Below, one piece after another: positions 1-35,177 of a stretch of DNA of 64,000 bases (position 1 is its first letter; every line of letters begins with the position of its first letter). The notes beneath the pieces were generated by a model, which was not told the DNA's origin, searched no databases, and saw only the letters and a list, made by a program, of their open reading frames with translations. Position numbers and translations under genes: made by a program. This DNA comes from Balamuthia mandrillaris (taxonomy: Eukaryota): positions 62,001-126,000 of the forward strand of contig JAVKOQ020000005.1 of assembly GCA_031835245.2 (NCBI GenBank). Direction: 5' to 3'.

Positions 1-6689
<6,689 letters not shown>

Positions 6690-6804
6690 ATAGCGTAATG
6701 CTCCATTCGTTTTCATAGTAACCTCTTCCTTGTATTTTGTATTATTTTTTTTTTGGAACCCGTTCATATTTGTTCCTCTCAGCGTCTTCTTATCGTCTTC
6801 ATTC

Positions 6805-6973
6805 TTTCTTTTTATTTATAGTTACATTTATACTTGTTATTTTTATTGATAGAAATTTATGTTTATATTTTTAATGTTTATTTTTATTTTTTTCTATTTT
6901 TATTTTCTATTTTTTATTTTTTAATGTTTATTTTTTTATTTATTTTATTTTTATTTTTATTTTATTTTTATTT
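6805..6973. repeat. AT-rich low-complexity intergenic tract (TTTTA-like units)
   Basis: Directly visible between the RICTOR stop and the next gene. Confidence 0.8.
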
Positions 6974-7087
6974 CATGGATAAAAAACAACATACGTCATC
7001 ATAGCTGTAAAAGGGTATTTTAATTGGATTTTAGGATAAATGGTGGCGTCACTTGCAAAATATTCCAACAAGAAAAGAGAAGAAAAG

Positions 7088-7962
7088 ATGGACAAGAAGG
7101 AGGAGTGGAAGGCCTTGGCCACGTGGGAGAAGGACGGCGTGTTCGTGCTGTGCCTGAACAGGCCGCAGCGCAAGAACGCCTTCAACCGCGACATGTACGA
7201 GGAGTGCATCCAGGCCTTGGCCCTGGCCGCGGCCGCGGAGCCCGTCCGCGCGGTGCTCCTCACCGGCAGCGGGGATTACTTCAGCAGCGGCAACGACCTG
7301 GCCAACTTCCTGCAGTACGACCCGGAGACCCTGCAGGAGCAGCTGCGGCAGTCCAAGGACCTGCTCACCCGCTTCGTGAAGGCCTTTCTTCATTTCCCCA
7401 AGCCCATCGTGGCGGCCATCAATGGGCCTGCTGTCGGTAAAGATCTTGTTTTTTATTTTTTCAATCGCAGAACTTTCAGAAATTAATTCAATCCACGAAA
7501 CAAAAATAAAACAACAAAGGTATCGCCACAACGATTCTTGGTCACTGCGACTTTGTGTATGGTCACGAAAGGTACCATTCTTTTCTTTCTTTCATTTTCA
7601 CTTATCACAAAAGAACATGAGAAACATGAGATTATTTTTTTTTCGCTCATCAAACCAATCTTTTTCATCCGCAAGTTGCACTTTTCACACACCCTTCATG
7701 TCGCTGGCCCAAAGCCCGGAGGGCTGCTCCTCCCTTCTCTTCCCCGAGTGCATGGGCCGCCTCAAGGCCAACGAGATGCTGCTCCTCGGCAAGAAGTTCT
7801 CCGCGGAGGAGGCGCTCTCCGCCAACCTGCTGAACGCGGTGTACTACGACAAGGACAACAAGCAGGGGGAGACCTTTGTGGACAGGGTCTTTGCGGTGGC
7901 CAAGCAGCTGGCCGAGTTCCCGCCGCAAGCTCTTCAGCTCTCCAAGAAGGTTTGTTCTTGTT

Positions 7963-8020
<58 letters not shown>

Positions 8021-8118
8021 TCTCTCTCTCTCTCTCTCCTGTTCTTTCATTCTTCTTTTGTGTTGCCTCTTTGCTCCTTTCTTCTTTTCGACTCTTTCTC
8101 TTTCTTCTTTCATGCATC

Positions 8119-8150
<32 letters not shown>

Positions 8151-8354
8151 TTCTGCTATTCTTCCTTCTTCATGTCTTTCTTATTCATACTTGTTCTTGT
8201 TCAGCTGATCAAGAGCGAGGCAAGAATGGCGCTGTTGGAGAAGAGCAACGCGGATGAGGTGGAGCTTTTGGGGGAGCGATGGGCCTCAGAGGAGTGCATG
8301 CAAGCCATCATGAAGTTCATGATGCGAAGACAAGACAAGAAAGCCAACCTTTAA
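7088..8354 (+). CDS. Enoyl-CoA delta isomerase (crotonase fold, ECI2/PECI-like), probably peroxisomal
   Basis: LNRPQRKNAF, YFSSGNDL, FPKPIVAAINGPAVG, TFHTPFMSLAQSPEGCSS, ANEMLLLGKKFSAEEA, ERWASEEC; ends in -ANL (PTS1-like). Several GT-AG introns. An upstream in-frame ATG at 7040 is an alternative start. Confidence 0.88.
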
Positions 8355-8403
8355 AGTATTATAATATTGCACGTTATTTATTGTTCGGCCTCCGTTGAGC
8401 ACT

Positions 8404-8484
8404 TTACAAGTTCTTACGAATGACATAGTTGAGAACTCCTCCATTCTGTTTTGTTGCCAAACAAAAGTTAGAGCCGAAAAAGAA

Positions 8485-8528
<44 letters not shown>

Positions 8529-8837
8529 AGTATGTACGTTGTAATAGTTGAGTTCGGTGTCAGTGTCGAAGCGAAGAACGGTGTCGAATTGTTCGATGGC
8601 TCCACCAGAGACCTTGACTGTGACGGTAGCGCCGGCGCCCAACCCCGTGATGTCCACGGAGAACTGTTCCTTTCCAGTCAGGCCCAATGAATCTGTTATT
8701 TTTGTGTCATCAACCGAGAGAGAGAGAGAGAGAGTGTGAGCAAGAACGAGAAAAGACAAATGAGAAACAGAAAAGGACGAACGCGAGAGAGAAGCGAGAG
8801 AAGAGAGAAGAGAGAGAGAGAGAGAGGGAGAGAGAGA

Positions 8838-8884
<47 letters not shown>

Positions 8885-10620
8885 GAACCAGCATTTTGGC
8901 CAGGGAGGAACTGCAAAGGAATGACGCCAAACAACACCAGGTTGGACCTGTGAATCCTCTCATAGCTCTGTGCCACCACAAACTTGACGTTCTGCATCCA
9001 CACGCCCTTGGCGGCCCAATCCCTGCTGCTGCCCGATCCATACTGCTCTCCAGCGAGAATGCAGAGCGGCTTGTCGCCATCCTTAATGTACCTCTCAGCA
9101 GCATCCCACACGTCCAACTCCTCGCCAGAGGGATGGTGAATCGTTCGTGGGCCAGCCTTGCCACCAATCAGCTTGTTGACCAAGCGAATGTTGGCAAAGG
9201 TGCCGCGGGCCATAACTTGGTCGTTTCCTCGGCGAGCGCCGTAGGAGTTGAAGTCGCGACGGTCCACACCTTTGGAGAGGAGGTAACGGGCGGCAGGCGA
9301 TTTGATGGAGATGGAGCCAGCAGGGCTGATGTGATCTGTCGTGATGGAGTCACCGAGGTTCAACAGGCAGTATGCGCTCTCGATCTGATCAATTTGTTAT
9401 TTAAGATGGGAAGAAATTAACAAAGCATAACAACAAAACAAAGAACAATCCAAACCTTTGTCAATGGGTTAAGCTCCTTTTGCATGCTATCAAAGAAGGG
9501 AGGGAAGTGGATGTAGGTGGAGTTCTCATCCCAAGGATAGAGCTTCTCGGAAGAGGCTTCGAGGGCGTTCCACTGCTGTGTGCCCTGGGTGACCTTGCTG
9601 TAGACCTCCGTGAACATCGAGCGGAGGACAGAGTGCTTGGCAGTCTCGGCCACCGCCTCGTGGGAGGGCCAAATGTCGCGAAGGAAGATCTCCTTGCCTT
9701 CCGCGTTGACACCGATGGGTTCAGTCTCAAAGTCGATCGTGGTGGTGCCTTAAAAGACAACAACGGCGTAAGATGAAACCAGAAGAGAAATAGAAAAGAA
9801 AGAAACCATGAAGAATAGAGAAAAGAGATGCTAAGAATATGGAAAGAAAAGAACGCACCAGCAATGGCATAAGCCACAACCAACGGAGGGCTAGCAAGGT
9901 AGTTAGCACGCACGTGAGGATGAATCCTTCCCTCAAAGTTCCTGTTGCCGCTGAGCACACCGCAGCAGACGAGGTCTCCCTCCTCCACGGCCGCAGCTAC
10001 TTCCTCCGGCAGAGGACCGCTGTTGCCGATGCAAGTGGTGCAGCCATAGCCTACCACGGAGAAGCCCAGTTGCTCGAGGAAAGGCAAGAGCTCGCTCTTC
10101 TTGAGATACTCAGTGACCACACCGGAGCCGGGGGCCAAAGAGGTCTTCACCCAGCGGCGTACGCTGAGGCCAGCCTCTACGGCGTTCTTGGCCAAGAGGC
10201 CAGCTGCAGTCATAACAGGAAAAATTAATATGGGTAGCCGCAGACAAGAGAGGAAAACAAGGAAAAAGACAACAATACCGGCAAGCATAACGTTGGGGTT
10301 GCTGGTGTTAGTACAGCTGGTGATGGCAGCAATAACAACGGAACCATGTCTAAGCTCCTCGTCTTTGCCTTCGAATTGGAACTTGACCACTCGGTCCTGT
10401 AATGACGGATCAATGAGAATGTTGCTAGGCGAGAATAGACAGAAAAACTTCAAAACAAACCAGCTGTTCCTTCGGGATGGCAAAGCCCTTGAAGCCAACA
10501 GGGTTCTCCAAGCACTTGAGGAAATCTTGCTTCATCTCAGCCAAAGGAACGTAGTCATGAGGACGTTTAGGGCCTATTCAATTGAAGGGTCAATACATTT
10601 TCTGTCGCTATTAGAAAGAG

Positions 10621-10655
<35 letters not shown>

Positions 10656-12278
10656 GAGAAAAGAAGAGAAGATAGAGGATATAGAAACGAGAGCAGAGAG
10701 CGGAGAACAGAGAGAAGAAATACCAGACAAGCAAGGAATGATGGTGCCGAGATCCAGCTCCAAAACATCAGTGAAGGAAGGATCCTGGGAACCATCAGTG
10801 TAATCCCTGAAGAGGCCCTGGGCCTTCAAGTAGGCCTCGATGTAGGCGATTTGTTCCTCGGTACGTCCAGTCAGACGGAGGTAGTCCAAAGTCTTGTTGT
10901 CCACAGGGAAGTAACAAATAGTGGCTCCCATTTCAGGAGACATGTTGGAGATAGTGGCCCTATCGGCAATGGAAAGCTGCTCCACGGCCGGTCCAAAGAA
11001 CTCCACAAACTTCTCAACCACACCCTTCTTCCTCAGTGCCTTGGTGATAGCCAGCACCAAATCCGTGGCGGTGGCGTGCGGGGGGAAGGTGCCGGTCAGG
11101 CGGTAGCCCACCACCTCCGGCAGCACCATGCTAATCGGTTGATCCAACATGACGGCCTCCGCCTCGATACCACCCACGCCCCAGCCAACGACGCCCAGGC
11201 CGTTGATCATGGGGGTGTGACTGTCAGTGCCGACAAGGGAGTCAGGGTAGAGCAGCCCGCTCTCGCTGTTGTGGAAGACGCAGCGGCCAAGGTACTCCAG
11301 GTTGACCTGGTGGACGATGCCAGCGCCTGGAGGGACGATGGTAAGGTTGTTGAAGGCCTTGGCGCCCCACTTCAAGAACTTGAACCGCTCGGCGTTGCGC
11401 TGCATCTCTGCCTCGAGGTTGGCCTGCAGGGCATCAGCAGAGCCGTACTTGTCTACCTGCACGCTGTGGTCGATGACGAGGTCTACCGGCACGGCGGGGT
11501 TGATCCTGTCGGGATCGCCGCCCAGACGCTTGCAAGCGTCCCTCATCGCAGCTGCCAGTCAACATAGCGAAAAGACACATAGAAGAGGAGGAAAGAGGAA
11601 CATAGAAGCATGCAACAGAGAGAAAAGCAAGAGAGAGAGAAGTGTGTAAAGAAAGAGCACATAAGGCGAGAGGAGAGAGAGAGAGAGAGAGAGAGAGGGG
11701 AGGAGAGAGAAGAGAAAAGGTAAGTGAAAAAGAACAAGGCAAAAAGGAACGAGGAAAATGGGAAACATAGCACAAATGGGACAACAACGAACCCAAGTCA
11801 ACAACGGCAGGAACGCCGGTAAAGTCCTGCAAGATCACGCGAGAGGGCTTGAACAGGATCTCTGTCTGTGTGGTGGAGGTTTTCTCTGCAAAGCATCAAC
11901 CAATCAATCGTGGTTGGAGTGAGCGTGTCAGCGTCCTTTTTCTAGAAAAAAAGTGATGCAAAAGAATTGGTGTTGATTTTTTTGGTTACCCCAGTTGAGA
12001 ATGTTTTCTACATCTTCCTTGCGCACGCCAGCAAAGCCACAGTTCCTCACTGCCGACTCCAGCAGCACACGAACGGAGAAAGGCAGCTTCTCTGTGTTGT
12101 TGATTATTATTTTTTCAAAAATCCAAGATGGAGGGTGAGAGAAAAAGAAAGGGAAAGTGCGGAAAGAAATATTACCAAGACGAGAGTCGTTGAGCTCAGG
12201 AAGAGAAAAGTAGCGATAGGTCTGCTCGCCAACGTTCAACTCCCTCTGCAAGTGTTGGTAGGGGTTCGTGCCTTCCAT
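8404..12278 (-). CDS. ACO1: Aconitate hydratase, AcnA/IRP1 (cytosolic) family, multi-exon
   Basis: [108 protein letters not shown]; last exon [13 protein letters not shown]. Confidence 0.96.
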
Positions 12279-12331
12279 CTTTTTTTTGAGATGATTTGTA
12301 CATTGTATAATTCAAAAAAACTACGTTGAAG

Positions 12332-12374
<43 letters not shown>

Positions 12375-12684
12375 AAAGAAGAACGTACGTTGTCGTTGAA
12401 GTGGTGGAATAGCTCTTTTCTCTCTTTCCTTTTGCCTTTTTTTTTTCGTTCAGAATACAAAAAAAAATTATTTAAGGATGGAGAAATTATCTATTTATAT
12501 TCAATAATTTTAGAAAAAATCGCCGAGGAGTTGTCGACATTTTCCTTTTTACAACAAAGTGGTGAATTAATTTTGTTTATATAAGGACAAGGACTTACGT
12601 CATTCAAATTCTTTGCATTTCATACATTCCTTGCATTCCCGTTGGAAAAAAAGAGTTACTGTTGTTTTTTTCTTGTGGATCCCG

Positions 12685-12993
12685 TTAGACGCACTCTTCA
12701 CAGCCTTCCGCGCAGGTCGAGGAGCCGTCGGAGCAATTCTTGCACGCCAACAAGCAGTCCTTGCAAGGCAGCTTCATCAAGCCGCCAAAGATGTGCTTGT
12801 CGATGCAGACCAGCAGGCAGCAGGCGGGGTTGCACTTGCAGCAGAACTTGCCGCAGCAGTAACAGGGGAAGCAGATGATGTAGACGACGAGGCCGATCAG
12901 GCCGGCGATGAGGGCGAAGGGGAAGAGTAGGATGAATAAAATGCCCTTGAGGATAGACCAGCAGCCCCCGCAGCAACAGCAAATAGTTCCCAT
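12685..12993 (-). CDS. Small Cys-rich membrane protein (102 aa, 22 Cys, one hydrophobic segment)
   Basis: Single-exon ORF with GC-rich third positions; CCCCGGC N-terminus, hydrophobic stretch, Cys-rich tail. Confidence 0.7.
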   Translation of the reverse strand: MGTICCCCGGCWSILKGILFILLFPFALIAGLIGLVVYIICFPCYCCGKFCCKCNPACCLLVCIDKHIFGGLMKLPCKDCLLACKNCSDGSSTCAEGCEECV

Positions 12994-13116
12994 TTTTTTT
13001 CTCCGGTGTTGTTGGTCTTCTTGTGGTGTGTTGCTGTTTTGGTGTGTTACCGTATCTTTCGGTTCGAAGATTTTTTTTCTGTTTTGTTAACAAATATTCC
13101 GTTACCTGCTGCGCAG

Positions 13117-15463
13117 CAAGGGTGGAAATCGAGCACTGGAGTGCTCGGTCGACAAAAACCCGCAAATAGTCAGTACTCGCGCGAGTTTGTGCCACGTCAG
13201 CGAATACTCAATTTTTCGAGTACTTTAATTAGTTTTGAGTGGCAATTTGAGGGCGAATTATTGGATGTTTCTTAAAGAAGGACCCGACCATAATTTATCG
13301 TTTTAGAGTTTCGGGCAAGAGAGTAAAGCGAAGAAAAAATTTTGAGCAAAGAGAATGGAAGCACCGCAGCAGGAGCAGGAGAAAGAAAAAGAGGCTGAAC
13401 CAAAGAAAAAGCGACGTCTATCGCATGTATTCCAACACTTCGTAGACGCCTCCCCGTCCAAAGAAGGAAAGCTGATGGTTCGATGCAACCACTGCAAAAG
13501 AAAGATGTGTTACAGCGATGGGCCAACAACGAACCTGTTGAACCACCTTCGTTCACAGCATCCCGAAACTACCTCTAAAAAAGTCTCCGAGGAGCTAATG
13601 GATGCGATTTGCGAATTTTGGGTGATGAACTCTCTTCCGTTTCATTTGGTGGAAGCCGAACCGTTTCAGAAGATTCTTTCATTCTGCGACGACAAGTTAA
13701 TGCCCGTCACACGCTATGGATTGAAAAAGAAAATCAAAGAATGGTTTGGAATTTTTTGTTTCCTTCCTTTTTGTCGTTGCTGCTTTCTGCTTTTTTTCTA
13801 GTTCTGTTTCTTTTTTCTCTTTATTGTGAGTTTTTTTTTGCTTTTTTTTAATGCTCATGTATCAGGTATGCATGCACACTTTTGAGCCTTCAAAATGAGC
13901 TGCAGCAAGAAGTCCGGGTATCAGAGGCACTGTCATATGACTTCTGGACTGCACCAAACAAGGACTCATACCTCGCTATAATCCTTCGTTACGTTTCCCT
14001 TTCCACTTTTCAACCAAAGACAGTTGTCTTAAGCGTGGCAGTCTTTGAAGAAGCTGAGCACACTGCAAATAACATACAAAAAGTTCTGATCCAGATTTCC
14101 CGCGACTGGAAGCTTTCTTTTGAGGACACTTTTGTTGTTGCAGATGGAGCAAGCAACGTTTCTGCAGCAGCGCGGCGTCTTTCAATGGAGCATATACACT
14201 GCGCAGCTCACAAACTCCACCTCATCGTCACCCATTCTATTCCTTCCATCCAGCCTCTTTATGACAAGTGCAAAGCCCTTGTCACTTTCTTCAACCAAAG
14301 CTCAAAAGCAAGCTTAGACCTTCGTGACCATCTAAAGAAAGAAAAGAAGAAGTTCCGCACTCTCATTCAAGAAAACACAACGCGATGGAACAGTACTTTT
14401 GAAATGTTTCGTCGTCTTCTCAAAGTCCGTGGTGGCTTTCTTCAAATCTTACAAAAGCATAAACGGGAAGATTTGCTCCTGGAGAGTGCTGAATGGGAGT
14501 TGTTGGAGCAAGCAAAGACGCTGTTAGAACCGTTGGCCACCTTAACTACGGACATTCAATCCCCTAATTCCTCCATTTCTATCATTCTACCTGCGTTACT
14601 TTCCTACTACTACAACTATCTTCCGTCATTTCCCTTCCCTTCTCAATCAATTCTCAACAACCTTGTGTCACGTCTACAAACACATGTTTTTGAGGCGATA
14701 TCCTACTACTTTGACACATCCGCTGCTATGGCAACAGCACTTGACCCACGTTTTCACCAACTCAAATATTGGCCTGCTCCAATGGCAATACGCGTTCAAC
14801 AAAGGATCCTTCAATGCAGCATTACATCCACTTCAGCTTTAATACCGACCTTCCCATCCTCAAAAAAGCACAAGAAGAGTTGGATTGACATGTTGCTTCA
14901 AACAAATACACCATTAACAACAACTCAACCAAGCAACTCACAACTCCAACGTGAATTAGAAGCATTTCTCTCTGGCCAAGTCCTTAGTCCCTTCGAAGAT
15001 CCTTACCGTTGGTGGCTATCTCATTCACAAACCTATCCTCTACTCTCCCAAGTGGCAGCCAAGTTTCTTGCGATTCCTGCGACTTCAGCTCAAGCTGAAA
15101 GAGTCTTCTCTCTCGCGGGTCACATTCTCTCTCCAGACCGTTCAACGCTCTCTCCTAAGCTTGTTGACATGCTTATTTTCTTGAAGTATGCGCACAATAA
15201 ATAACCACTTGCTTCTCTCTCCCGTCTATTTGTTTCGATGTACATCGCTCCCTCTCGCGTTCCCTTTTTGTATTTTAATCAACAATTATCGAGTCTTAAT
15301 CATAGATATCTTAATTTATGGACTCCATTTTAATTCGAGTGGTGCTGACATCATCGCGAGTGCTATTCACTAAAAAAGAGGCACTCGCCAGCAGTCGAGT
15401 ACTCATAACGTCTAATACTCACGAATGAGTAGTCGAGTGGTGAATGCTTGATTTCCACCCTTG
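13117..15463 (+). mobile_element. Complete hAT (Ac/hobo/Tam3) DNA transposon, 2347 bp
   Basis: Left TIR CAAGGGTGGAAATCGAGCA (13117-13135) and right TIR TGCTTGATTTCCACCCTTG (15445-15463) match at 18/19. 8-bp TSD CTGCGCAG at 13109-13116 and 15464-15471. Subterminal CGAGT/ACTCG/AGTACT repeats at both ends; internal transposase. Confidence 0.96.
13355..15204 (+). CDS. hAT transposase (BED Zn finger + DDE + C-terminal dimerization motif), ~575 aa, one intron 13744-13865
   Basis: BED-like HVFQHF...CNHC...LLNHLRSQH; SYDFWT (D1), VADGASN (D2), HCAAH (CxxH), TRWNSTFEM, PATSAQAERVFS (E). Removing the GT-AG intron joins the two ORFs in frame (..KEW|YACTLLSLQN..). Confidence 0.93.
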
Positions 15464-28266: not shown

Positions 28267-28989
28267 ATGAAGAGAGTAATGACCTTGCTGGTTGTGTTGG
28301 CAGCCTTTGCTGCTGTGGCACTCTGCGACAAAGCTGCGGTCGACGCCTCTACCACCACAACGAGATACTACGACGGTGGAGACATCTACGATGGCAAGTA
28401 CGATGGAGGCAACATCTACGATGGCAAGTACGACGGAGGCAATATCTACGATGGCAAGTACGATGGAGGTGACATCTATGATGGCAAATACGGCGGTGGC
28501 AACGTCTTCGATGGTAGGTACGATGGCAACATCTTCGATGGCAAGTATGATGGTGGTGATATCTACGATGGTCGCTATGATGGTGGCGACGTCTACGATG
28601 GCAACTATGATGGTGGTGACGTCTACGACGGCAACTATGATGGTGGCGACGTCTACGACGGCCACGACATTGATTACTATGATGACTATGAAGATGACAA
28701 TGTGAACTACGGAGCTGGTTGGTGCCCTGGTGACATTGATTACGATGGTAACGACGGTTACGATGGCAACGATGGTGGCAACGTCGGCGATGGCCACGAC
28801 GGTCATGATGGTAACGATGGCGGTAACGTCGGTGACGGTCACGATGGTCATGACGGTAACGATGGCGGTAACGTCGGTGACGGAGACGGCAAGAGTGATG
28901 ACAAGAGCAGCCAGGGATCCGACAGCAGCAACGATGGTGGCAGCAAGGACCACAGCGCTGCCCGCTCTTTGCGTCCCTTTGTCTTCTAA
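28267..28989 (+). CDS. Secreted Gly/Asp/Tyr-rich tandem-repeat protein (240 aa)
   Basis: Signal peptide MKRVMTLLVVLAAFAAVALC; about ten YDGG[DN][IV]YDG[KRN] units then GHDGHDGNDGGNVGD units; synonymous variation between units indicates coding constraint. Confidence 0.88.
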   Translation: MKRVMTLLVVLAAFAAVALCDKAAVDASTTTTRYYDGGDIYDGKYDGGNIYDGKYDGGNIYDGKYDGGDIYDGKYGGGNVFDGRYDGNIFDGKYDGGDIYDGRYDGGDVYDGNYDGGDVYDGNYDGGDVYDGHDIDYYDDYEDDNVNYGAGWCPGDIDYDGNDGYDGNDGGNVGDGHDGHDGNDGGNVGDGHDGHDGNDGGNVGDGDGKSDDKSSQGSDSSNDGGSKDHSAARSLRPFVF

Positions 28990-29047: not shown

Positions 29048-31175
29048 CTAAAATAAAAAAAATATAGTTTCTTCGCTATCACTATCGCTATCGCTATCGC
29101 TGTCTTCGCTATCACTGTCACTAGAATAAAATTCCTCTTCGTCTTCGTCTTCGTCTTCATCATCTTCTTCAAACCGTCTGCGGGGTTCCTGCTGGGGTTC
29201 ATCCCAAGGGCATCCGTTGTCACGTGCCCACTTTAAAATGTCCTTATGTCCGTTGCGTGAGGCCCAGTTACACGTGCTCTCGTCCCAAGGGCATCCATTC
29301 GTATGTGCCCACTGCAGGATCCTCAAGTGTCCTCCTTGTGCTGCAGCGCTACATGTTCGTTCATCCCAAGGACAGCCATTGGCCCTCAGCCATTGCAACA
29401 CTTCCAGTTTGTCTCCTTTTGCAGCAGCCGCACAGGCCGTGGCATCCCAAGGACATCCATTGGCTCTGGCCCATGTTAATATCTCGATGCAGGCCTTTCG
29501 TTCGAATTCGTCCTCCTCTTCATCATCCGCCAACGCAGTGGCGGCTCCTGTACAGGTTCGCTCATCCCAAGGACAGCCGTTCTCTCGAAGCCATCGAAGT
29601 ACTTCAAAACGTTTGGACTCTGCTGCAGCACAGGCCCGTTCGTCCCAAGGACATCCTTTCTCTCGAGCCCATTTCAACATCTCAAAGTTCTCTCGAGCTG
29701 CGGCTGCACATACTTCCTCGTTCCAAGGACATCCACGCTCCCAAAGCCACTTCAACAGTTCAGGTCGCGCCTCAGCAGCAGCAGTAAGGCATGTGCTCGC
29801 GTCCCAAGGACAACCCTGTTCGTGAAGCCATTGGAGCAGCTCCTTATTGCCATGGGCCACTGCCTCATTGCAAGTCTCCACAGTCAAAGGACAGCCCTGC
29901 TCATATGCCCATTTCAAGATCTCAAAGTGACCTCCGTCTGCTGCTTTGCTGCAAACCTTGTCGTCCCAAGGGCAACCATTGTCGTGTGCCCATTTCAAAA
30001 TCTCCAAATGTCCATATTTAGCCGCTTTGCGGCAAGTGGCCTCGTCCCAAGGTAAACCAAGCTCTCGAGCCCACTTGAGAAATTCAAAGTGGCCGCCCTT
30101 CGCTGCAGCGCTGCAGCTTGAAGCATCTACCGGGCAGCCGTGCTCGTATGCCCACTGAAAGGTGGCCATTTGCCCTGCCTGTGCTGCATAGCGCAAGGTG
30201 TCCTCATCCCAAGGGCAATCGTGCGCTCGAGCCCACTTTAGAACGTCCAGGTGTCCTGACATAGCGGCCATTACACATGTTGTCTCGTCCCAGGGGCAAT
30301 AGTTTTTATGAAGCCACTTAAGAACCTTCAACTGGCCAGCTCCTGCCGCATGTGCAGCAGTCATCGTGCTCCAAGGGCAGCCCCACAGTCGAATCCATTT
30401 TAGGGCCTCCAAGTGCCCGTTTTTCGCCGCAGCGATGGTGGTATTCGTATGCCACGGACAAGAACAATAGTAGGCTTTCTTGAGCACGTGCAAATGGCCG
30501 TTTGCCGCTGCAGCATCACATGTCTACCAAAGCAGAAAATGCAAGAGAGAGAGAATGTAAGTGACATGAAGAAGAGCAGGCTGAAGAAAAGAAAGAGAAA
30601 GAGAAACGACGAAAGAGAAAGAGAACGAGAAACGACGAAAGAGAAAGAGAAAAGTGAACAAATGAGAGGAGCATACCTTTTCATCCCAAGGACAGCCATT
30701 CTCTCGCGCCCACATCAACACTTCCAAGTTGCCTTGTCTGGCCGCCTCCTCACATGTACGGACGCTCATCGGATGTCCGTTCTGCACAGCCCATTGTAAC
30801 ATCTTCAGGCTGCTGCACACCGCCTCCTCAAGCAGTACGCGCCGAAGTACGGGATTGCTGCAAGCATACCAACGACGGCAGGTCCTGGCGGCCACAGCTA
30901 CCATGTGACGAGGCAGCAGGTTAATTATGTGACACAATAGTTCGTCTGGGATCTGATCTTGCAGCCAGCTACCACCTTCTCCCTATATTGGACAAGAAAG
31001 CGTAAGCTGCGGGGATCTAGGAATGGAACACAACCCCTTCCTGAGATGCAAAAAGACGAACCGTGTGCGGTGCTTCGTGATTTCCAAGCGGGTCTACCTT
31101 TTCATTCTCTGCGTTTTCCGTATGCAGTGTCTCTTGCTCTTGGTCAATCCTTCGGCGTTTTTGTGGTTTGCTCAT
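29048..31175 (-). CDS. F-box + 'GCPWD' ankyrin-like repeat protein with acidic tail, intron-containing
   Basis: MSKPQKRRRID exon; F-box-like IPDELLCHIINLLP..AARTCRRW; more than 15 repeats of C..AA..GHLEILKWAxxNGCPWD. Confidence 0.85.
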
Positions 31176-32427: not shown

Positions 32428-32628
32428 GTCTTTTGGAGGGAAAGAAAGTAATATGTCGACAGTTGTCTACAAAAAGTATAACCTGTTTTTATGACGACAT
32501 TAGATTTAAATATTTGTCGACATTTGTCTGCAAATAATCGCTCCTACAGGAATAATACGAAGGCGACGCAAAGATCATAAGATCTAAGGACAACAAAAAA
32601 GAAATCCCGACGACATTCGTCTTTTGGG

Positions 32629-32654
32629 CCAATGAGCATTTTTCCCGCCAAAAC
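32629..32654 (+). promoter_or_regulatory. CCAAT box plus E2F-type site (TTTCCCGCCAAAA) upstream of the Fanzor gene
   Basis: CCAAT 32629-32633; TTTCCCGCC 32641-32649 fits the E2F consensus TTTSSCGC; about 70-90 bp before the ATG at 32722. Confidence 0.5.
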
Positions 32655-32721
32655 AACCCTTCCTTCTCCCACGTCTTCGAAGGCAAAGTGGTGGGTTGGG
32701 GTGTGGGGTGGGGTGAATGGA

Positions 32722-34843
32722 ATGGATGCTCATGCTGCTGCCGCCAATAAACTTTTGGTACTCGTCATTCGCCTTGACACTTTTCTGCTACTCGTTTTCT
32801 TTTCTTCTCTTCTCTTCTTTTCTTGTCGTTTCTTTCTTTTCAAAAGTAAACACACAGACACACACATCCACGAAGCTCCACGCACCACCGTATTTCTCAT
32901 TGCTACGCTTCTACTACACAAGGAGGAAACCAGCGGCGGAAGGAGGCAGAGGTGGAAACCGAAGCGGTTCAGCAGCAGGCAGGGGCACCGCTCCGATTGA
33001 AAAGGTAGCGTTCTTTTTTCTCTGCTCGCTCACTACATTTTTTGATGATGGAAAAAAAATTTGTTACCAACCACTCACTAATGATTTCTTTTGTTTAAAA
33101 AAGAACAGCATCACGAACCTCTGTGCGCCTCTTCCACAACGCTGCTGGAAGCTGGCCTGAATGGCAAGTTTGCTACCTCTCACGGGTTGGCCGTTCACTT
33201 CGGTCGGGTCCACAAGGAAGGGGGTCGCGCCACTACTTCTTCTACTCCCACTGCTACTCGGAAAAGAAGAGCGGAAAACGCCCCAGCGGCACCTCAGGCA
33301 AGGGCACAGAAGCGTGGAAGGCCGCAGGCTGCACCCGCCCAGCCCTTTTGGAACCAGTTTTCCAGCGAAATCGGGAGAAGATTAATACGCCCAGAAGCCT
33401 TGTGCTTGGAAGAACCCTTTGCCTGTGGTTCAGGATGGTTCACCGCCTGCAAGCACATTCCTAACGGAGAAAAGGTGTTGGAGGAGGAGGAGGAGGAGGA
33501 GAAGAAGGAGAAGGAGAAGGAGAAGGAAGAAGAGGAGAAAAACCAGAAAGGCTTGTTAGGCCTCATCGAGGGACTCGTTCCGTCTCGCCCAGCCGTACAG
33601 CTCACCAAAAAAGGCAAGAATGGAGAGGAGAAACCGGTAGTGGGGCGATTGGAGAAGATCCGCCTTTATCCGCGCTCGGAACAAAAGAAGACGCTGGCCA
33701 AGTGGTTCGGCACAGTACGATGGACCTACAACAAGGCCGTGGAGTTTCATCGTGAACATAAAGGAATGCCTCTTAAGAAGATGAAGGAACAAGTCAGGGA
33801 GAAATTCCTGAATAACGGCAATTTCAACGGAGAGGACAAGAGCCTTGCGTGGGTGTTGGAAACTCCTCGATACATTCGCAGTGACGCCGTCGATGATTTC
33901 TTCAACGGCGTGAAAACCAGCTTGGCGGCGGGCAGGACTGGATTCAAGATGAAGTTCCGTGGTCGGAAGGACAAGAGCCAGTCTCTCAGCATCCAAGCCA
34001 GGGAGTGGAACCACAGCAAGTCCATCCGCCAACTCCTCTTCGGGGAGGCGCGAATCAAAGCGAGGGACAAGAACTACAAAGTTCCGTCGGAGGTGCTCTA
34101 TGCCGTTCGTCTGGTGAAAGACACTCGACTGGGCCATTACTACCTCTGTGTGCCTCAGCCTTTGAAGCTCATGGGCGAGAGCCAAGCCCGTGAGCACCGA
34201 AGGAGAGAGGCAGGCATCATCGCCTTGGATCCAGGAGTGCGCACATTCATGACCACCTACAACGGCTGCGGGGAGGTCACCGAGTGGGGCAAAGCGGACA
34301 TCAACGAGATAGGCAAGCTGTGCCACCGCCTGGACCGCATGCAGAGTAAGGGCACCAAGGGCAACCACAGGCAACGGCGCCGTCTCCGAAGGGCCGCTGC
34401 TCGGCTTCGCCAGAGGATCCGCAACCTGGTGGATGACCTCCACAAGAAGCTCGTGTCTTGGTTGGTCAGGAACTTCTCCCTCATCCTTCTGCCAGAGTTC
34501 AGGAGCCAGCAGATGGTGCGGCGAGGCCACCGACGCATTGGCTCACGAACGGCCAGAGCCATGCTCACCTGGTCCCACTATCGCTTCAGGCAGAGGCTCC
34601 TCAACAAGGCCAAGCAATGTCCGTCCTGTACGGTCTGCCTCTGCGATGAGGAATACACCTCCAAGACCTGCGGCAAGTGCGGCCAAGTCCACCACCAGTT
34701 GGGGGGAAACAAGACCTTTCGGTGCCCAACCCGAGTGTGGCTACCAGGCCGATCGAGATGCCAACGCCGCCCGAAACATCTTGATCCGCTTTTTTACGTT
34801 ACAAGCACTTACCACCTCCTCCTCCTCTGTGAGGGGGCGGTAG
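32722..34843 (+). CDS. Fanzor2 (eukaryotic TnpB-like RNA-guided endonuclease); exons 32722-32757, 32858-33004, 33109-34843; frameshift near 34723-34738
   Basis: PFWN..EI..RL N-terminal motif, KIRLYP..QKKTL..WFG..RWTYN (OrfB HTH), IIALDPGVRTF (RuvC-I D, 34228), ILLP + DEEYTSKTC (rearranged RuvC-II), CGKCG...CP Zn ribbon, and in the shifted frame ECGYQADRDANAARNI (RuvC-III D, 34757). Both 5' introns are GT-AG and phase 0. Confidence 0.92.
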
Positions 34844-34917
34844 GCGGTAAGGTTGCTTTGGTGCCGGCACCGTTGCTTATAGCGAGTCGTATGACAAGCC
34901 GTGATTAGGCACGCCGG
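34808..34917 (+). ncRNA. Candidate Fanzor omega-RNA scaffold (guide predicted to start at 34918)
   Basis: Long hairpin 34808-34851 over the stop codon; GGTG-CCGG-CACC hairpin 34860-34871; three small hairpins 34874-34910; terminal GCCGG 34913-34917 complementary to the CCGG loop (pseudoknot). Folded by eye. Confidence 0.62.
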
Positions 34918-35177
34918 AGGTGGGTTATTTCTTGTTTCTCTGTTTTTTTTTCCCCCGTCAACTAATTTTGCTTTATTTTCGTTGTCCATTGATCGGCTTG
35001 ATCTTGGCACCATCTTAGGAGTTAAAAGGTTTAAATTCCTATTCTTATTGGAGGTGAACCACTGCTGGCTGTGTTTTGTGTGTACATAGCTGAGTGCAAG
35101 CGATCATATAACAAAAGTAATAACAATGAATTGTAATCACAAGAAAGAAGAAAGAAAGAACAAGCGCTGAAAGGTTT

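Follow-up and report, generated by a model that had tools for sequence, protein, structure and literature searches.

The stretch of DNA behind a Fanzor2 nuclease gene of Balamuthia mandrillaris very probably encodes a real omega-RNA scaffold, and the guide which follows that scaffold is probably encoded by the mobile element itself and fixed in most of the copies seen. The overall account which we prefer, and to which somewhat better than even credence is given, is that this is very likely the pseudoknot-closed omega-RNA scaffold of an IS607-derived Fanzor2, ending at 34919-34921, which now lies inside a longer unit with a fixed guide, the likely relic of capture by a larger inverted-repeat element. 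All coordinates are those of the window, that is, the whole 64-kb stretch of DNA analysed, and every feature described lies on its forward strand. An earlier note had proposed the omega-RNA region of a Fanzor2 at this position, and the proposal is borne out both by the nuclease gene and by the matching structure found in relatives.

The nuclease gene and its surroundings

The Fanzor2 gene occupies positions 33161-34843, its start being placed from paralogues with a C2H2-like finger at the N-terminus. Its product matches the Pfam families HTH_OrfB_IS605, OrfB_IS605 and Cas12f1-like_TNB, the nearest solved structure is that of mimivirus Fanzor2 (9B0L, E 2.7e-19), and the closest named proteins, 70-95% identical, are labelled Balamuthia mandrillaris. 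The setting is eukaryotic, the flanking genes being rich in introns and containing RRM, PH and ankyrin domains. In the pattern reported for Fanzor2 (PMC10711439, in part), DPG stands at RuvC-I, the catalytic glutamate six residues before the first CxxC, and RD after the zinc finger; the motifs ALDPG, E-x6-CxxC (as DEEYTSKTCGKC) and DRD are present here, the last of them spanning a frameshift. The window copy is in fact frameshifted twice, near 33167 and near 34726-34731, and other copies are open across the 3′ frameshift (nine of ten reads of run X22, and a contig of run X12). None of 13 named host proteins, which are assembly gene models and may contain errors, has DPG, E, the last cysteine pair and DRD together. 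Two paralogues (P0003 and P0185) start with a C2H2-like zinc finger before the Fanzor2 N-terminal domain (Pfam zf-C2H2 E 0.015, below the cut-off), and this finger (33161-33215 in the window) is partly lost in the window copy and in several others.

Ankyrin-like repeat genes, which are common in giant viruses of amoebae, lie at 29048-30937, ~1.6 kb upstream of the element. An open reading frame at 28267-28989 has a signal-peptide-like start and many short Asp-Gly-Tyr repeats, and could encode a surface or cyst-wall protein.

Parts and fold of the predicted omega-RNA

The motifs that the earlier note had named are all found where it placed them. The predicted RNA begins with a long 5′ hairpin (34803-34858) which overlaps the last codons and the stop of the nuclease gene, its inner part, 34808-34851, covering the stop codon TAG at 34841-34843 as had been claimed. 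Stem-loop 2 (34860-34871, from the MAFFT alignment and pair counts) consists of a GGU/ACC stem, GGTG/CACC in the earlier description, and a loop, GCCGGC, which supplies the 5′ strand of the pseudoknot (CCGGC, 34864-34868). A variable domain at 34872-34912 then contains three small hairpins (34874-34884, 34886-34895 and 34898-34910) within a GT/AC closure at 34872-34873 and 34911-34912, and is followed by GCCGG at 34913-34917, assigned as the 3′ strand of the pseudoknot from the pairing in relatives. The 5-mer GCCGG itself occurs only twice within 34801-35100.

The folding energy resides in the 5′ part. Hairpin 1 (34802-34857) is far more stable than shuffled sequence (z -4.4, reached by 0 of 300 shuffles) and the whole of 34802-34919 is moderately so (z -2.8, 2/300); taken by itself, the 3′ part (34857-34919) is not more stable than shuffled sequence (z -0.5, 94/300), and the two base pairs of the GT/AC closure have a pairing probability of just 0.18. 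When the pseudoknot strands are held single, the predicted fold is that of hairpin 1, stem 2 and the three small hairpins.

What supports the small hairpins is the placing of substitutions in other copies. Eight are listed in 34860-34919, of which six are unpaired, one keeps its pair as G-U and one breaks stem 2, a placement expected by chance with P about 0.02. Within the weakly folding variable domain the substitutions lie in loops, and in the 3′ strand of the pseudoknot no substitution of at least 2% is listed across four runs. The T at 34892 is private to the window; nearly all other copies have A, giving a middle loop GUAA, a GNRA tetraloop. Covariation within the family in hairpin 1 was set aside, the substitutions at 34838-34860 being mixed and the reads behind them differing at many positions. 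In Rfam the best match is TarB with 18 bits against 80, and no family approaches its gathering score. As a separate observation, positions 35004-35012 at the right end of the element are complementary to stem 2 and its loop (34859-34867), the 7-bp core having a pairing probability of 0.97 in a read-through transcript. Such a transcript is predicted to lose the pseudoknot, which may amount to a switch between mRNA and guide RNA folds.

The pseudoknot in relatives

An alignment of 42 homologues led to 80 metagenome and 79 viral loci. A serine-recombinase motif, as in IS607 elements, is present in 98 of these 159 loci and was found nowhere within the 64-kb window, such that the in-element TnpA of IS607 is not a feature of this element. 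The pseudoknot was examined in those 88 regions (87 loci and the window) in which the last RuvC motif could be recognised and was followed by 150 nt or more. To pass, a region had to contain a G-rich stem-loop in which five bases of the loop are complementary to a 5-mer that lies 30-190 nt downstream and is followed by [ACG]G. On this rule, which was written after the sequences had been seen, and with some loci near-identical and related loci not independent, 33 of the 88 regions pass (32/87 relatives and the window), as against 1-7 of 88 in 20 rounds of shuffling. The window passes with exactly the pair that the earlier note had proposed, and taken alone does so only at the ~4% level.

When aligned by MAFFT with no structure given, the loop and 3′ strand of the window fall in register with those of 17 passing relatives. 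Double-sided changes occur at all five pseudoknot pairs, a result reached by none of 500 shuffles, and registers slid out of place are only 37-58% paired; since the rows were selected for passing the pairing test, these figures show register and variety and are not an independent test. The window has G-C pairs where other rows have U-A or A-U. The partners CCGGC and GCCGG are those which the earlier note had named. The inner part of hairpin 1 also resembles the hairpins of loci L003 and L010, and a compensatory pair distinguishes these two from one another. Both features expected of an omega-RNA, overlap with the end of the open reading frame and a loop able to pair with the last bases of the scaffold, are thus present in the window, and the scaffold length of ~115-120 nt agrees with the ~110-120 nt given previously.

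A covariance model built from 16 relatives, with the window left out, gave no hit on the window RNA even with E values of up to 10 allowed; it did recover 8 of 22 other loci (E up to 1). The window RNA is therefore atypical in sequence. Among the relatives themselves, loci L001-L086 and L104-L108 form a conserved family of IS607 Fanzor2 omega-RNAs behind metagenome and viral nucleases, with strong covariation of the pseudoknot. In viral contigs, neither a scan with a single protein nor exact patterns from the right end and stem 2 gave a relative or a match.

The end of the scaffold and a probable built-in guide

The scaffold had been taken to end directly after the pseudoknot, at CCGG (34917), and this is incorrect, as is the guide start derived from it, which is 2-3 bases too early. 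Five sets of near-identical relatives, in unlike flanks, diverge 2 nt past the pseudoknot (L001/L006, L015/L016, L004/L011 and L104/L108) or 3 nt past it (L002/L005 and L104/L106), so that AG(G) at 34918-34920 belongs to the scaffold. Within the host, a minority form diverges after 34921; it is seen in two X3 contigs, whose tails are alike only at chance level, and in seven reads of X23 which share one tail. The scaffold tail is accordingly placed at 34918-34921, with a predicted end at 34919-34921 and most likely at 34920. A GG core, which the earlier note had mentioned for IS607-type ends, would be 34919-34920, the position that fits best.

The predicted guide, 34921-34934, is fixed in the main family, and its last six bases are all T in most copies. 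In X3, a unitig runs unbroken through 34854-34971 at a depth of 75.9 against ~11 outside (~7 times), and in X12 a contig spans 34120-34946 without a break. Positions 34931 and 34892 have equal depth in X2 (45.2 and 45), X3 (102.4 and 101.9) and X12 (14.9 and 14.9). Depth at 34931 in X1 is 29% of that at 34892, which breakage at T runs or a greater number of short-form copies may explain, and the share of long-form copies in X1 is in consequence uncertain; 29 X1 contigs have C>T at 34931. The view that the element ends at its scaffold is hence wrong for most copies, the main family continuing to 35019. A scaffold at the element boundary, with a variable guide behind it, is found in the minority form and not in the main family.

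The earlier note had expected copies to lose identity right after 34917. Copies of the main family remain identical well past it, which refutes the idea that their guide is flanking host DNA. It does not refute the RNA itself, since covariation in relatives and the divergence of the minority form after 34921 mark one and the same end. A fixed guide would exclude the usual mode of action, in which every copy has its own empty site cut. As to what the guide might recognise, it holds GGGTTA (34922-34927), one unit of the TTAGGG reported as the host telomere repeat (bioRxiv 10.1101/2025.02.25.640156, in part); a telomere target was considered and rejected, the likeness being of only six bases, noticed after the fact and probably due to chance.

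The mobile element

Copies were judged only from contigs and reads of sequencing runs (X1, X2, X3, X12 and X22-X24). By contig depth, mixed flanks and an end joint, these place the gene and its RNA within a multi-copy mobile element of ~2.46 kb, 32560-35019, which has no transposase gene. Summed contig depth in X1, which is not a copy number, is ~2,000-14,500 inside the element and 18-59 outside. Upstream of 32560 the flanks are mixed (six X2 contigs and 19 X22 reads), and one contig contains the joint of 35019 to 32560. At the right end, high depth persists through 35010-35021 and then gives way to single-copy level, from 1376 to 29 to 18.6 in X1 and from 343 to 13.6 to 10.8 in X3, where it is 343-674 over 34950-35021 and ~11 past that. 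The end at 35019-35021 is therefore sharp and common to copies of the main, long form. Between guide and end lies a T-rich spacer, 34935-35019, which is delimited by X3 depth, has no fold of its own (z +1.35) and includes the right arm of an inverted repeat (34976-35008). The left arm of this imperfect subterminal repeat, 32568-32599, matches the reverse complement of the right arm in 25 of 33 columns, a score reached by 3 of 2000 shuffles with windows picked by eye; the 33-nt terminal window alone is not significant (347/2000). A similar likeness to the left end for the 3′ end of the scaffold was rejected (800/2000 shuffles).

The carrier may be either an IS607-like element with a GG core or a cut-and-paste element that duplicates TA. 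The right end reads TTAGG, and GT stands before 32560 in other copies, which bears on the question of a GG core; a TA duplication is compatible with the ends of other copies, as a fit only. The other haplotype in X1 joins 32544 to 35096, the letters between being not known, and is not a clean empty site. This second haplotype, from which 15 bp to the left of the element and 76 bp to its right are missing along with the element itself, could be a scar of excision or repair. No DDE transposase fusion was found among 57 longer homologues, and no second copy of the element ends or of the RNA elsewhere in the window.

Shorter derivatives also exist. Gene-less joins of left end to right end are represented by a joint of 32667 to 34962, by a loose end in X2 and by a loose end before 34937 in X3. 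Short gene-less elements (32560-32700 plus 34937-35019) appear to be more numerous than full copies in X2 and X3, and in two X23 reads the end of the scaffold is fused almost directly to the right end (34919-34986), guide and spacer being missing.

Transcription across the element

RNA reads came from three RNA-seq runs of one study, of which 3-5% each was read and which are not small-RNA libraries. There are 272 over the element in X22, and 34 (X23) and 11 (X24) over 34770-35110. Gene and scaffold are both covered, and there is no enrichment, no strand bias and no piling up of ends. Coverage ceases at ~34921-34929, no read clearly crossing from the scaffold into the T-rich part, and this stop fits either the end of a transcript at the U run or the presence of short-form copies in that strain. 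Over 34962-35019, where the DNA depth of X3 is highest, RNA depth is near zero.

Alternative explanations

Four other readings were weighed. The fixed guide may itself be functional, aiming the nuclease at nuclease-less sister copies, which repair from a full copy would then convert, such that the gene would home within its own transposon family. This is unlikely, though several observations speak for it. Gene-less end joins exist, and depth in X2 and X3 is greater at the ends than in the interior; those copies that are expressed keep the reading frame; and the left arm, kept up to 32696 in short elements, carries at 32690-32697 the 8-mer GGTGGGTT, the same as at the junction of scaffold and guide. 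In the 64-kb window this 8-mer occurs, on both strands, only at 32690 and 34919, and GG with the first six guide bases at 32690 is the sole such site among 29 other TGGGTT sites. Against this, the match is of just 5-6 guide bases, the single short-element junction seen departs after five, an 8-mer would recur by chance within 2.5 kb in an estimated ~8% of cases or more, and full copies hold the same site and would target themselves.

A shade less probable still is an RNA extended to 35019, the end of which would pair with stem 2 and replace the pseudoknot, in the manner of Fanzor1; its guide would be variable host DNA from 35020. The complementarity of 35004-35012 to 34859-34867, with its strongly predicted 7-bp core (probability 0.97), would permit this; the resulting 218-nt scaffold would be near the 205 nt of mimivirus Fanzor2 (PMC11832414, in part), and Fanzors are reported to shift their RNA boundary onto new ends (PMC10711439, in part). 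Such pairing, however, would destroy a pseudoknot which is unchanged in the copies and, according to part of the same report (PMC10711439), needed in IS607 TnpB. Moreover, the added 100 nt are without a fold and contain U runs, and the near absence of RNA over 34962-35019 is at odds with the high DNA depth there.

Slightly more doubtful again is that this is an ordinary IS607-type Fanzor2 family which ends at ~34921 and has variable guides, the long form being a single expanded lineage with a dragged flank and no general meaning. The existence of short-form copies, the stop of RNA reads at 34921-34929 and the fall in X1 depth after 34925 speak for it. The long form, however, is the main form in three independent studies (X1, X2/X3 and X12), includes copies only ~82-87% alike (X1 record 7 and X3 record 15), and has a sharp common end at 35019-35021 with an inverted repeat of the left end. 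Finally, that there is no functional RNA at all, the hairpin arising from CCT/GGG-rich codons and the pseudoknot match from chance, is very improbable: the failure of the relatives' covariance model to find the window, the want of an Rfam family at cut-off, a scaffold with no more RNA depth than the gene and a 3′ part without an energy signal are outweighed by an order and position of elements that match those of relatives, an independent boundary within 4 nt of the predicted end, and substitutions that avoid the stems.

A possible history of the element

The preferred account, that of a captured omega-RNA cassette with a fixed guide, would run as follows. Transcription of the 3′ end of the gene would yield an RNA that folds into hairpin 1, stem-loop 2, the three small hairpins and the CCGGC/GCCGG pseudoknot, and the folded RNA would be bound by the nuclease, as suggested by relatives and by the structure of mimivirus Fanzor2. 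That the RNA is made and bound, and the pseudoknot formed, is a prediction. In the ancestral short form, the end of the element would have coincided with the end of the scaffold, and the landing site would have supplied the guide; divergence of just this kind is observed in the minority form. One such cassette may then have been enclosed in a unit whose ends are 32560 and 35019, carrying with it ~100 bp of downstream DNA, though the order of these events is conjectural, and the unit would have multiplied with the help of a transposase encoded elsewhere. The same short guide, with a U run at its end, would consequently be common to all long copies, and a copy's own empty site could not be cut with it. 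As a fixed guide removes the benefit of cutting that site, the gene would be expected to decay, as it has in many copies. Against a general decay, those copies that are expressed keep their frame across the 3′ break (nine of ten X22 reads).

Relation to known systems

The closest parallel is ApmFz2, or ApmFNuc, the IS607 Fanzor2 of Acanthamoeba polyphaga mimivirus (PDB 9B0L; PMC11832414 and PMC10530073, both in part). It is alike in its rearranged RuvC and in having an omega-RNA behind the gene, a 5′ loop of which is pseudoknotted with the last bases of the scaffold. It differs in possessing its own serine recombinase, in an RNA which passes the end of the element, such that the guide is flanking DNA, and in a scaffold of 205 nt against ~118 in the window. 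The Fanzor2* elements of Chloropicon primus and of molluscs, e.g. Mercenaria (PMC10711439, in part), also have a non-autonomous or non-IS607 carrier with degenerate inverted ends and have kept the pseudoknot; in those, however, the inverted repeat and target duplication are reported within the scaffold and the guide is variable, whereas the scaffold in the window ends ~100 bp inside the element. ISXfa1 and related IS607 TnpB (pro-Fanzor) elements, in the part of that report concerned with them, share the stem-loops, the pseudoknot and a GG core in the scaffold after the pseudoknot, but are bacterial, have TnpA and use a variable guide.

More generally, the omega-RNA is described, in parts of PMC10432273 and PMC10530073, as abutting or passing the right end, and a 2026 review (PMC13565253, in part) gives the 3′ 14-15 nt as not conserved among copies. 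Guides that do not come from the insertion site are reported for TldR repressors and for the fixed-guide TnpB named as the ancestor of Cas12k (PMC13565253 and bioRxiv 10.1101/2025.08.27.672191, both in part). These systems are bacterial, and the TldRs are nuclease-dead with a known promoter target, whereas the family in the window keeps catalytic motifs. No description of a fixed or shared Fanzor guide was found in the literature covered, most subscription papers, Repbase and the Fanzor2* supplementary figures of PMC10711439 lying outside its scope. Likewise, no paper was found on Fanzor and Balamuthia together, and Balamuthia is absent from the supplements of three Fanzor papers in a term search of all files but one scanned one. 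Support for the Fanzor2 omega-RNA as a real RNA of a known kind is fairly good; its boundary is corrected here, and its unexpected feature is a guide that is probably built into the element. Among bacterial TnpB derivatives such fixed guides are already known.

The finding adds a compact (~118 nt) scaffold to those of Fanzor2. The accepted role of TnpB and Fanzor nucleases is to cut the empty site left by the transposon, which needs a guide from each landing site. A single host appears to hold both states of one family, the guide being variable in the short copies and built into a long form which is far commoner, and as such offers a natural experiment on the part that Fanzors play for their transposons. 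Decay of the nuclease in the long form would support the homing model. Were the fixed guide to serve homing onto nuclease-less sister copies, which is unlikely, it would mean a Fanzor2 uncoupled from the end of its transposon, with a hard-wired guide and a programme of its own. Retention of the nuclease in the long form would require a target for the fixed guide, which would be a first step towards domestication, as in bacterial TldR and Cas12k.
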